Part shown: piece by piece, positions 19,289 through 22,783 of the stretch
How the letters are laid out: each line of letters starts with the position of its first letter
Position numbering within the stretch: the stretch's first letter is position 1
DNA from: Corallococcus sp. CA041A
GTDB taxonomy: Bacteria; Myxococcota; Myxococcia; Myxococcales; Myxococcaceae
Assembly: GCF_003612075.1 (NCBI RefSeq)
Contig: NZ_RAWF01000059.1
Location: forward strand, 1 to 40,012
Length of the DNA stretch: 40,012 bases
Direction of reading: 5' to 3'
Program-made: the position numbers and the translations under genes
Notes under the pieces: generated by a model
Seen by the model: the letters and a program-made list of their open reading frames with translations, nothing else
Told to the model about the DNA's origin: nothing
Database searches by the model: none

Positions 19289-22200
19289 ATGACTGACACG
19301 ACTGAACTGTCCAAGGCCTACGAGCCCTCCGAAGTGGAGGCGCGGTGGTACAACCACTGGCTGGAGCGCGACTACTTCCGCGCCGAAGCCCCTTCCTCCA
19401 AGCCGCCGTTCAGCATCGTGCTGCCGCCGCCCAACGTGACGGGCAGCCTGCACATCGGCCACGCGCTCACCGCGACCATCCAGGACATCCTCACGCGCTG
19501 GAAGCGGATGAGCGGCTTCAACGCGCTCTGGCTGCCGGGTACGGACCACGCGGGCATCGCCACGCAGATGGTGGTGGAGAAGGAGCTGAAGAAGACGGAG
19601 GGCAAGAGCCGCCACGACCTGGGCCGCGAGGCGTTCCTCGAGCGCGTCTGGACGTGGAAGGGCAAGTTCGGCGCGCGCATCGGTGAGCAGCACCGCTACC
19701 TGGGCGCGTCCCTGGACTGGAGCCGTGAGCGCTTCACCATGGACGAGCAGTCCTCGGCCGCGGTGCGCGAGGTGTTCGTCCGGCTGTACGAAGAGGGCCT
19801 GATGTACCGGGCCCAGAAGCTGATCAACTGGTGCCCGTCCTGCCGCACGGCCCTCTCCGACCTGGAAGTGGAGCACGAGGAGAAGAACGGCTCGCTCTGG
19901 CACATCCGCTATCCGGTGAAGGGCACGGAGCGCTTCCTCACCGTGGCGACGACGCGCCCGGAGACGCTGCTGGGCGACACGGCCGTCGCCGTGCACCCGG
20001 AGGATCCGCGCTACCAGGACCTCATCGGCAAGAGCGTGGCGCTGCCGCTCACCGACCGTGAGATTCCGGTCATCGCGGACGGCGAGCTGGTGAACATGGA
20101 GTTCGGCACCGGCGTGGTGAAGGTCACGCCCGCGCACGACTTCAACGACTACCAGACGGGCCTGCGCCACAAGCTGCCGATGCTGTCCATCCTGGACGAA
20201 GCGGCGCGGATGACGAAGGACACCGGCAAGTACGCGGGCCTGGAGAGCCGGGAGGCGCGCAAGCAGGTGCTGGCGGACCTGACGGAGCTGGGCCTGCTGG
20301 AGAAGGAGGAGCCGCACAAGCTGAACGTGGGCACCTGCCAGCGCTGCACCACGGTGGTGGAGCCGCGCCTGTCGCCGCAGTGGTTCATCAAGATCGAACC
20401 GCTGGCGAAGCCGGCCATCCAGGCCGTGGAGGAGGGCCGCACGAAGTTCGTCCCCGAGTCGTGGACGAACACGTACTTCCACTGGATGAACAACATCCAC
20501 GACTGGTGCGTGAGCCGCCAGCTGTGGTGGGGCCACCAGATCCCCGCGTGGTACTGCGCGGCGTGCACCCCGGCGGAGGAGCGCTCCAAGGACACGGCGG
20601 ACGTCATCGTGTCTCGCACGGCGCCGGAGTCCTGCCCGAAGTGCGGCGGCAAGGAGCTGACGCAGGATCCGGACGTGCTGGACACCTGGTTCTCGTCCGC
20701 GCTGTGGCCGTTCTCCACGCTGGGCTGGCCGAAGCAGACGGCGGACCTCCAGACCTTCTACCCGACGTCCGTGATGGAGACGGGCCACGACATCATCTTC
20801 TTCTGGGTCGCCCGGATGATGATGATGGGCCTGCACTTCATGAACGATGTGCCCTTCCGCACCGTGTACCTGCACGCGATGGTGCGCGACGAGAAGGGCG
20901 AGAAGATGTCCAAGACGAAGGGGAACGTCATCGATCCCCTGGACGTCATCCTCGGCGCGAAGGCGGAGTCGCTGCAGCCGTCCTTGCGCAACCGCTTCCC
21001 GCAGGGCATGCCGGCGCACGGCGCGGACGCGCTGCGCTTCACGCTGGCGTCGCTCACGCAGCAGGGCCGTGACATCAAGCTGTCGATGGACCGCCTGGGT
21101 GGCTACAAGGCGTTCTGCAACAAGCTGTGGAACGCCAGCCGGTTCGCCCTGATGAACATGGGCGACTTCAGCCTGGACAAGACGCCGCTCGAGGGCCGCA
21201 AGCTGACGCTGGCGGACCGGTGGATCCTCTCCCGCCTGCAGAAGGCCACGGAGGAGACGCGCGCGTCGCTGGAGGCGTTCGGCTTCGCGGAGGCGGCATC
21301 CACGCTGTACCAGTTCCTGTGGGCGGAGTTCTGCGACTGGTACATCGAGCTGGCGAAGGGCTCGCTGTACGGCGACGACGCGGAGGCCAAGGACACCACG
21401 CGCGCGGTGCTGGTGACGTGCCTGGACCGCATCCTGCGGCTGATGCACCCGTTCATGCCGTTCATCACCGAGGAGATCTGGCAGAAGCTGCCGATGTCCC
21501 GGCCCACGGAGAGCATCTGCATCGCGGCGTACCCGGCGCCGGAGACGGCGTGGGTGGACGCGGCCGCGGAAGGCGAGATGGCGCCGGTCATCGCGGCCAT
21601 CGAGGGCCTGCGCACGCTGCGCGGCGAGAGCAACCTGCCGCCGTCCGCCAAGGTGAAGGCGGTGGTGCAGAGCCCGGACGCGACGACGCGCGAGCTGTTG
21701 GAGCGTTGGCGCGCGTACCTGATGCCGCTCGCGGGCTTGTCCGAGGTGGTGGTGGGCCCCCCGGGCGCCAAGCCTCCGCAGGCGGCGGCGTTCGTGAGCG
21801 GCAACCTGGAAATCTACGTGCCCCTGGCGGGCCTGGTGGACCTGGACGCGGAGCGCGACCGCCTGAAGAAGGAGATCGTCCGCTCCGAGCAGGAACTCAC
21901 CGGTTTGCAGCGCAAGCTGGACAACCCGAACTTCGTGGCCCGTGCTCCGCCGGACGTGGTGGAGAAGGACAAGGCCCGGGTGGCGGAGCTCCAGGAGCGC
22001 ACGGTCAAGCTGCAGGATCACCTCCAGCGCATCGCCCCGGAGCCCCCCATGTCCGAGACGCCGTCGCCGTTGCCGGGCAGCACCGAGTCCGAAGCCCCTG
22101 AAGCGTCCGAGTCCCCCGCGCCCGAGAGCGCCCATGTGAAGGTGGCCACCGAGCCGCAGGCACCGAAGGACGATGCGGTGAACCTGGGCCAGGAGCTGAA

Positions 22201-22783
22201 GGGCGAGATTGAAGCCGAAGAGGCTTCGCAGGCGCCCCAGGCCGCGGATCCGGTGGTGGAGGAGGCCCTCAACAAGCTGCGCGAGGGCACCAAGGAAGGG
22301 CTGTCCCCGGCGGACCACCACGACCTGGGCGTCGCGTACATGAGCATGGGCCTCGTGGACGACGCGATGCGCGAGTTCGACCGGGCCAAGGAGGGCGGCG
22401 ACGCCCGCGAGGCGCCGGAGGGTTCGGCGAAGCCGGTGAAGAAGGCTCCGACGAAGAAGGCCCCTGCGAAGAAGGCGGCGGTGAAGAAGGCCCCTGCGAA
22501 GAAGGCCTCCTCGAAGAAGGCCCCTGCGAAGAAGGCCTCCGCGAAGAAGGCGGCGAGCAAGAAGTCCGCCGCGAAGAAGGCCCCTGCGAAGAAGGCTTCC
22601 TCGAAGAAGGCTTCCTCGAAGAAGGCAGCGGGCAAGAAGACGGCCGCGAAGAAGGCGGCGGTGAAGAAGGCTCCTGCGAAGAAGGCTTCGGCGAAGAAGG
22701 CGGCGGGGAAGAAGACCGCCGCGAAGAAGGCCGCGGCGAAGAAGACCACTCGGGGCAAGCCGGCTCGCAAGGCGCGCCGGTAG
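19289..22783 (+). CDS. valS: valine--tRNA ligase with an unusual roughly 250-aa C-terminal extension ending in a Lys/Ala-rich histone-H1-like tail
   Basis: Class I HIGH motif ([14 protein letters not shown]), KMSKS (EKMSKTKGN), the editing domain and the ValRS C-terminal coiled coil are present. An acidic/Pro-rich linker, one TPR-like motif and 117 aa of (A/S/P)AKKA repeats follow. Confidence 0.95.

Follow-up and report, generated by a model that had tools for sequence, protein, structure and literature searches.

Does a bacterial tRNA synthetase carry a lysine-rich extension that is a genuine part of the enzyme, and what might such an extension do? The question is raised by valS, the gene for valyl-tRNA synthetase (ValRS), in a 40,012-nucleotide (nt) stretch of Corallococcus sp. 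CA041A (contig NZ_RAWF01000059.1, positions 1 to 40,012, forward strand; hereafter the window). Lysine-rich nucleic-acid-binding appendices of aminoacyl-tRNA synthetases (aaRSs) are usually treated as a eukaryotic innovation. An initial annotation of this DNA described the gene as a fusion of ValRS to a histone H1-like repeat tail, noted that a frameshift would undo this reading, and proposed that valS be compared with its counterparts in other myxobacteria. The data presented below show that the open reading frame (ORF) encodes a bona fide ValRS to which an acidic spacer, a conserved helical unit and a polycationic tail are appended. The features of the gene, delineated with Pfam and NCBIfam models, an AlphaFold2 (AF2) model, composition and the ratio of nonsynonymous to synonymous substitution rates (dN/dS), are as follows, in window coordinates and amino acids (aa).

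19289..22783, plus strand: valS, long-form valine-tRNA ligase, a complete ORF of 1164 aa plus stop.
19289..22033, plus strand: canonical ValRS core, aa 1-915 (Pfam domains, signature motifs, AF2).
21839..22033, plus strand: C-terminal coiled-coil tRNA-binding arm, aa 851-915 (Pfam Val_tRNA-synt_C, PF10458).
22034..22174, plus strand: acidic Pro/Ser/Glu-rich disordered spacer, aa 916-962 (composition, AF2, dN/dS).
22175..22228, plus strand: acidic amphipathic helix motif (V/F)DLxxELxxEL, aa 963-980 (columns conserved in 88 homologues).
22250..22393, plus strand: three-helix segment comprising a cap helix and one tetratricopeptide repeat (TPR), aa 988-1035 (AF2, identity, dN/dS).
22403..22780, plus strand: disordered polycationic Lys/Ala tail, aa 1039-1164 (composition, AF2, H1/HC2-type models).
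22432..22744, plus strand: tandem repeat in the DNA encoding the tail (Tandem Repeats Finder).

The valS ORF contains no internal stop and no change of frame in the ORF list, and in the NCBIfam scan its product matched the ValRS models TIGR00422 (1136.8 bits against a cut-off of 612.1) and NF004349 (PRK05729; 1254.6 bits against 704, spanning aa 9-911), supporting the proposed in-frame fusion. With the ValRS of Corallococcus exiguus it shares 99% identity. The translation has LHIGH at aa 54-58 and KMSKT at aa 539-543, corresponding to the HIGH and KMSKS signatures, whose columns are invariant in an 86-sequence alignment. Within the extension the GC content at third codon positions (GC3) is 0.89 in the valS frame compared with 0.51 and 0.60 in the two remaining frames, and is in line with the 0.95-0.96 of the rest of the gene, indicating that the valS frame is the one translated across the extension. 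The tail is the sole Lys-rich stretch in the six frames of the window, and Rfam and tRNA scans placed no RNA element in valS. Two antisense ORFs, at 18155..23590 (minus strand, 1811 aa) and 22018..22770 (minus strand, 250 aa), were considered and rejected as shadow ORFs of high-GC DNA, as they have the wrong GC3 pattern. The translation of the smaller one, which reads 'FFAAAFF...', mirrors the AKKA repeat, and antisense stop-free ORFs cover both valS and the romR-type gene upstream of it.

The canonical enzyme comprises catalytic, editing and anticodon-binding domains plus the coiled-coil arm; the Pfam domains are tRNA-synt_1 (aa 20-599), Anticodon_1 (PF08264; aa 643-792) and Val_tRNA-synt_C (aa 851-915). 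The standard bacterial ValRS models of NCBIfam end at aa 896-911, with PRK05729 ending at 911. The AF2 model was built from 86 homologues; its confidence extends as far as aa 915, where the core helices end, with a predicted local distance difference test (pLDDT) score mostly above 85 in the core. Its best structural match, 1GAX_A, is the Thermus thermophilus ValRS in complex with tRNA (target-normalised TM score 0.85, 44% identity). Because the Pfam coiled coil, the end of PRK05729 and the end of the modelled helices agree, the end of the canonical enzyme can be placed at about aa 912-915 (window positions ∼22025-22033), with approximately 250 aa more in frame. The extension is thus attached at the end of the tRNA-binding coiled-coil arm. 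The order of coiled coil followed by linker had been recognized in the initial annotation, although the junction was placed slightly early, at about aa 905.

The extended architecture is a property of a lineage rather than of this one gene. The conserved helix-pair motif and a Lys-rich C-terminus occur in 88 of the 120 best ValRS homologues (61-99% identity). These long forms, of 1044-1332 aa, derive from Corallococcus, Myxococcus, Pyxidicoccus, Hyalangium, Stigmatella, Melittangium, Archangium, Aggregicoccus and many metagenome-assembled genomes, and include independent protein records of 1131-1332 aa from complete genomes. By contrast, about 25 relatives of 910-934 aa, which are roughly 70% identical, stop directly after the coiled coil and have neither the helical unit nor the tail. 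When a profile of the helical unit, the middle module, was run against GTDB genomes, a single one for each species, the unit was confirmed in 127 species. The taxonomic labels were Myxococcaceae, Archangiaceae, Myxococcales, Myxococcota or generic (Proteobacteria, delta proteobacterium), with a single exception labelled Comamonas. In 79 of 80 species loci that were fetched the module lies inside a long valS ORF, with a Lys-rich tail after it, and M. xanthus valS (MXAN_4460) displays the same architecture. The locus labelled Comamonas (L021, BNCN01000007.1, 'Comamonas sp. KCTC 72670') has the arrangement romR, long valS (with a 251-aa Lys-rich tail) and nadC. Its nadC is 83.5% identical to that of the window, and the assembly looks like a Myxococcus-type genome that has been mislabelled or contaminated. 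These data show that the extension is specific to Myxococcaceae/Archangiaceae-type genomes. They agree with the earlier suggestions that the tail is lineage-specific and not universal in bacterial ValRS; it lies beyond the ends of PRK05729 and TIGR00422.

The long form is already present in databases, as the NCBIfam model NF011492 (PRK14900, long-form ValRS, 1044 positions) implicitly captures the architecture. The window valS scores 1826 bits against its cut-off of 1783, with residues 1-1110 aligned to model positions 3-1027, that is, through the extension. Two short relatives (P0096 and P0090) score 1548 and 1571 bits, under the cut-off, and their alignments stop at position 893-894. That a sequencing or assembly frameshift has joined valS to a separate gene made up of the tail or of the entire extension, a possibility raised at the outset, therefore has a negligible probability. 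The ORF is continuous both here and in 79 independent species assemblies, 127 species and 79 of 80 loci hold the same in-frame architecture, GC3 identifies a single coding frame, long records occur in complete genomes and PRK14900 spans the arrangement.

The three parts of the extension differ markedly in how they evolve. Residues 916-948 of the spacer consist of 27% Pro, 21% Glu and 21% Ser with a net charge of −7, as expected from its description as an acidic Pro/Ser/Glu-rich linker. The AF2 pLDDT is below 50 over aa 921-971, and disorder is predicted over aa 921-986. Regions were compared across 49 complete coding sequences, with dN/dS calculated by the NG86 method as a ratio of means. The spacer (916-962) displayed a mean pairwise identity of 0.43 and a dN/dS of 0.87, and thus evolves nearly neutrally. 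The corresponding identity and dN/dS values were 0.83 and 0.30 for the catalytic domain (40-600), 0.76 and 0.43 for the anticodon-binding domain (643-792), 0.71 and 0.33 for the coiled coil (851-915) and 0.58 and 0.48 for the DLxxEL motif (963-980). The three-helix segment (988-1035), with an identity of 0.80, had a dN/dS of 0.21, the lowest among the regions compared. This segment is therefore as constrained as the catalytic, active-site domain and is under purifying selection.

The alignment of the 88 homologues defines a unit of about 75 aa that consists of the DLxxELxxEL helix, a cap helix and one TPR: VKVAPP..G.VDLxxELKxEL is followed by 10-20 variable residues and then by the conserved cap helix/TPR block. 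AF2 predicts helices at aa 988-1001, 1007-1019 and 1023-1035, over which the mean pLDDT of 10-residue blocks climbs from 63 to 90; a weaker helix of low to moderate confidence covers the DLxxEL motif (966-980). The initial annotation had pointed to an isolated TPR-like helix pair, equivalent to aa 1012-1033. The helix pair is upheld by the model and by a weak TPR_2 match, but it is part of the conserved unit and hence not isolated. The Pfam TPR_2 match (16.4 bits, E 0.01) lies below the cut-off of 27, which was designed for arrays and cannot be reached by a single repeat; similarly weak matches were found in 19 of 21 homologues. Against the PDB, a profile of the unit returned only generic TPR matches (consensus-TPR chains and MamA). 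The last two helices are thus a putative TPR by several weak criteria.

The tail consists of 36% Lys and 33% Ala and has a net charge of +48. It contains 21 consecutive xxxKK pentapeptides at aa 1048-1152 followed by a final 12 residues, which accords with the roughly 20 AKKA-type copies originally counted. The encoding DNA has a 15-nt unit in 20.9 copies with a higher-order period of 75 nt in 4.1 copies. AF2 gives a pLDDT of about 32 over aa 1044-1164, so that this region is predicted to be disordered. Among 119 non-identical long ValRS the tail shows no conservation of sequence and measures between 33 and 286 aa, with a median of 127. Its composition is held (median 31% Lys, 33% Ala, 9% Pro and 2.6% Asp plus Glu), the net charge is positive in every case (+8 to +67), and the last residue is Arg or Lys in 117 of the 119. 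A more positive tail accompanies a more negative acidic segment (Spearman rho −0.75, uncorrected for shared ancestry), which is suggestive of charge balancing.

The resemblance of the tail to H1-like proteins, also noted initially, holds at the level of composition. The HC2 model PF07382 scores 37.0 bits with the whole protein and 40.9 bits with the extension alone, on either side of its cut-off of 40, in a low-complexity, composition-driven match. The H1-like models NF038053 (49.1 bits against a cut-off of 80) and NF038052 (32.9 against 135) likewise respond to composition. In a database of 5.8 billion proteins the best matches to the tail were the C-terminal tails of actinobacterial HU/HupB, together with the similar tails of a few proteins of DksA, SWIB and L21 type. 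The likeness to H1, HC2 and HupB is one of composition and is not evidence of common descent.

The helical unit, in contrast to the tail, has recognizable relatives. A search of its profile against 1.84 billion representative proteins recovered C-terminal fragments of ValRS (verified by BLAST) and multi-TPR proteins that match the whole unit. The multi-TPR proteins display FFDLxxELxxEL, 15-25 residues and then (I/L)FxEFKxGVxxxxxxxDxxTHYNLG(V/I)AYKEMGLLDDAIxEF. NCBIfam identifies them as SgmX-like, as they match both the N- and the C-terminal part of the model NF052243, 'type IV pili formation protein SgmX'. In hmmscan, aa 937-1036 of the ValRS extension match positions 817-925 of the same model (E 2.5e-7, 29.4 bits). 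As this model describes 14 TPRs and has a cut-off of 1800 bits, the match is local only; ValRS is not a member of the SgmX family but shares one unit with it. Alignment of the ValRS unit with ten SgmX-like units by hhalign extended over 76 columns and all three sub-motifs with a probability of 99.5%, a value that is inflated as the second alignment was picked from matches of the first. These comparisons indicate homology between the unit and the opening repeat of the C-terminal TPR triad in SgmX-like proteins. From the NCBIfam model coordinates alone we infer that the ValRS repeat would correspond to the first TPR of that triad ('TPR12'); the triad itself is absent from ValRS, in which one TPR is present. 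In M. xanthus the SgmX triad TPR12-14 is the regulatory domain that binds MglA-GTP (PMC7668184; PMC9811614), with a dissociation constant of ∼0.6 μM (PMC13408092).

The unit is not confined to myxobacteria. TPR proteins that contain it carry the labels Thermoanaerobaculia and Vicinamibacteria (both Acidobacteriota) and Ca. Sulfobium (Nitrospirota), among others. A search for SgmX-type sequences returned short TPR fragments only, with Thermoanaerobaculia, Vicinamibacteria, Ca. Sulfobium and Comamonadaceae as the named taxa. Because it is found in the TPR proteins of Acidobacteriota and Nitrospirota, the unit is a widespread 'opening' unit of TPR arrays that is not peculiar to the Myxococcus polarity system. 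Four proteins that seemed to consist of the unit plus a tail (P0121, P0127, P0136 and P0189) were rejected as stand-alone genes, since they look like valS gene-call fragments on short contigs. In P0136, a metagenome protein of 477 aa, the valS unit and tail continue into nadC-like sequence (MDSLDWLIELALDEDLGAAGD...). The fusion most likely stems from a gene-call or frameshift artefact at the point where valS and nadC nearly touch.

The genes that flank valS in the window are as follows.

17889..19235, plus strand: romR-type response regulator with a receiver domain, separated from valS by a 54-nt gap.
22793..23671, plus strand: nadC (TIGR00078, 301 bits, cut-off 198), starting 9 nt after the valS stop.

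Besides the receiver domain, the romR-type protein has a conserved acidic helix at its C-terminus and an extended Pro-rich region built of PPGARPPGAPPPGAM-like repeats, where the local GC content is 77%. Upstream of valS the order is a gene combining a response-regulator receiver with GGDEF (RR-GGDEF), a CheW-domain gene and this receiver/Pro-rich/acidic response regulator. It is the same as the M. xanthus order MXAN4463, MXAN4462, romR (MXAN4461) and the Val-tRNA synthetase MXAN4460 (PMC2034494). Of the 80 loci, 66 have sequence matching the C-terminus of romR immediately before valS, the remaining loci ending within or just upstream of valS, and nadC is downstream in 77; nadC is probably co-transcribed with valS. 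The adjacency of romR and valS was considered as a link to cell polarity and rejected. Two relatives that lack the ValRS extension have the same arrangement of RR-GGDEF, romR-like, valS and nadC genes, and the neighbourhood is therefore uninformative about the extension.

What, then, might the extension do? We infer each binding and functional property that is attributed to it below. The reading we favour, with a probability of about 0.5, is a composite one in which the tail serves as an auxiliary nucleic-acid capture arm in cis and the helical unit as an element for protein contact or self-association. The protein is a housekeeping ValRS bearing a selected, lineage-specific appendage in three parts. 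The spacer, of some 50-70 aa, leaves the end of the coiled-coil arm and would provide reach, its charge partly offsetting that of the tail. The helical unit, apparently derived from the opener of an SgmX-like C-terminal TPR triad, would most likely mediate protein contact or self-association. The Lys/Ala polycation would bind polyanions (tRNA, rRNA or DNA) electrostatically and without sequence specificity. The net effect would most likely be a higher affinity for tRNA and/or retention near RNA-rich sites of translation. The proposal of a capture arm is made because the polycation sits on a tRNA synthetase and hangs from its tRNA-binding arm. There is a precedent in the Lys-rich domains appended to yeast GlnRS and ValRS, which provide auxiliary non-specific tRNA binding in cis, and in those of synthetases of higher eukaryotes (PMC3306390). 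A myxobacterial example of a comparable charge pattern is CarD, which has an acidic and then a basic disordered DNA-binding segment that the histone H1 C-terminal region can replace (PMC8156234).

Several observations weigh against this proposal. The proteins nearest to the tail in composition bind DNA and not tRNA, and its ∼ninefold variation in length, with recent tandem duplication, fits weak constraint. Close relatives do without the extension, which is therefore unnecessary for aminoacylation as such. Capture of tRNA on its own leaves unexplained the active-site-like conservation of a single TPR unit. When the unit was modelled alone AF2 returned four helices with a predicted TM score of 0.30, so that their tertiary packing is not confident, and a Foldseek search of this model against the PDB returned nothing with an E value below 2 and hence no analogue. 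The correlation between the charges of the tail and the acidic segment is uncorrected for shared ancestry. Finally, literature searches on the M. xanthus ValRS extension and on lysine tails of bacterial aaRSs returned no relevant paper and no functional study.

The DNA-binding character of the proteins that resemble the tail invites the view that the tail, being of H1/HupB type, tethers ValRS to the chromosome, where the enzyme would moonlight as a nucleoid-associated protein or be stored or sequestered, for instance in development or sporulation. The best matches of the tail are those of HU/HupB and other DNA-associated proteins, the H1-like and HC2 models respond to it, and the acidic-then-basic disordered region of CarD binds DNA (PMC8156234; PMC4374960). 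The likeness, however, is confined to composition, the scores do no more than reach the family cut-offs, and a polycation does not tell DNA from the abundant RNA of the cell. As the substrate of ValRS is tRNA and the tail is attached to the tRNA-binding arm, we consider association with the nucleoid unlikely. It is also conceivable that the tail has no function of its own and is a low-complexity expansion, driven by slippage and tolerated at the C-terminus, beside a TPR unit that alone is functional. This would account for the in-frame 15-nt tandem repeat with its recent 75-nt higher-order duplication, and for a sequence that is not conserved and whose length varies from 33 to 286 aa. Yet the tail occurs in every complete ORF that has the unit, and between lineages with only ∼62% identical ValRS cores neither its composition nor its positive charge is lost. 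Acidic residues are nearly excluded (2.6%), and 117 of 119 proteins retain a basic C-terminus. This explanation is accordingly regarded as improbable.

The strongest purifying selection in the protein falls on the helical unit, and the latter may instead be the principal functional element, docking ValRS to MglA-GTP or to another polarity, pilus or hub protein, or dimerizing it, with the tail as an accessory. In support of such recruitment, the unit shares its ancestry with the beginning of the C-terminal TPR triad of SgmX-like proteins, a triad that in M. xanthus SgmX binds MglA-GTP (PMC7668184; PMC9811614; PMC13408092), and valS adjoins romR in each locus inspected. Against it, ValRS has only one of three TPRs, and MglA binding is known for the triad as a block; the score with the SgmX model is 29 bits against a family cut-off of 1800. 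The same unit is present outside the myxobacteria, in Acidobacteriota (Thermoanaerobaculia, Vicinamibacteria) and Nitrospirota (Ca. Sulfobium) TPR proteins, and the order romR-valS-nadC is unchanged in relatives without the extension. In one supplementary text file of a paper on MglA, SgmX, FrzS and SopA, ValS terms are absent. Partner recruitment with the unit as key element is regarded as quite doubtful. A bolder version, which we view as a long shot, holds that ValRS, by virtue of its SgmX-type unit, is a client or effector of the polarity-motility machinery (through MglA-GTP or an SgmX/FrzS-type partner) or self-associates, while the acidic and polylysine blocks concentrate the enzyme with RNA at a particular site or in a condensate. 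If true, the charging of tRNA-Val or local translation would be coupled to polarity or development. If the tail raises the affinity for tRNA or RNA, it would represent convergent evolution of 'tRNA capture' by a synthetase in bacteria. If the TPR unit recruits a partner, ValRS would be a rare example of a bacterial synthetase connected to a network for localisation or regulation in the cell. These ideas are directly approachable in the genetically tractable M. xanthus.

The window contains several other genes of note. Two genes downstream of valS (24359..26638, plus strand) lies the gene for a 759-aa protein with Vault, Vault_2, Vault_3 and Vault_4 repeats and the shoulder domain of the Major Vault Protein (PF11978, E 9e-45), and thus a homologue of the eukaryote-type vault shell. 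A selenocysteine tRNA gene with the anticodon TCA is located at 6071..6169 (minus strand; Rfam RF01852, 70.5 bits, in agreement with ARAGORN). The 572-aa product of 30449..32167 (plus strand) combines LysM with a C-terminal domain similar to VgrG3 of type VI secretion systems (PF21277, E 2.8e-53), and is possibly a peptidoglycan-targeting effector or enzyme. Further genes encode a GroEL-type chaperonin (11783..13426, plus strand), a protein with DUF3857 and a transglutaminase core (7275..9758, plus strand) and an M1 aminopeptidase with an ERAP1-like C-terminal domain (36861..39545, plus strand).

Comparison with known systems places the extension between several precedents. Eukaryotic Lys-rich aaRS appendices are similar in being terminal Lys-rich extensions of synthetases, ValRS included, that are absent from ordinary bacterial orthologues. 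The myxobacterial extension differs from these appendices in being bacterial and C-terminal, the Lys-rich appendix of yeast ValRS being N-terminal, and in its regular xxxKK repeat, which is much longer and more charged (+48). In addition, an acidic spacer and a conserved TPR unit precede the tail, and no sequence homology was found between the myxobacterial extension and the eukaryotic appendices. The H1-like tails of bacterial proteins, such as the PAKKA-type tail of HU/HupB, chlamydial Hc2 and the H1-like proteins of Burkholderia, are likewise Lys/Ala/Pro-rich, disordered and tandemly repetitive, but are carried by DNA-binding or regulatory proteins and not by a tRNA synthetase; Pseudomonas AlgP may be grouped with these basic tails. 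The HMGA-like CarD of M. xanthus belongs to the same phylum and also has an acidic and then a basic intrinsically disordered nucleic-acid-binding segment (PMC8156234; PMC4374960). CarD, however, is a transcription factor with RGRP AT-hooks that target AT-rich DNA, has another host domain and contains no TPR unit between its acidic and basic parts. An earlier case of a bacterial ValRS with an altered cellular location is the cyanobacterial enzyme, which differs in being anchored in the membrane, its abstract mentioning no basic tail (PMC4893482). SgmX and SgmX-like proteins share with ValRS the DLxxELxxEL motif, the cap helix and the first TPR (HYxLGVAYxEMGLxDxAxxEF). The synthetase differs from SgmX in having one TPR, with no triad and none of the other SgmX repeats, and MglA-GTP binding has been demonstrated for the SgmX triad only. 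A whole bacterial lineage with eukaryote-like cell biology thus keeps a ValRS appendix together with an interaction unit that is constrained like an active site. The extension is best regarded as an independently built bacterial analogue of the eukaryotic Lys-rich synthetase appendix, to which a borrowed SgmX-type TPR unit has been added.

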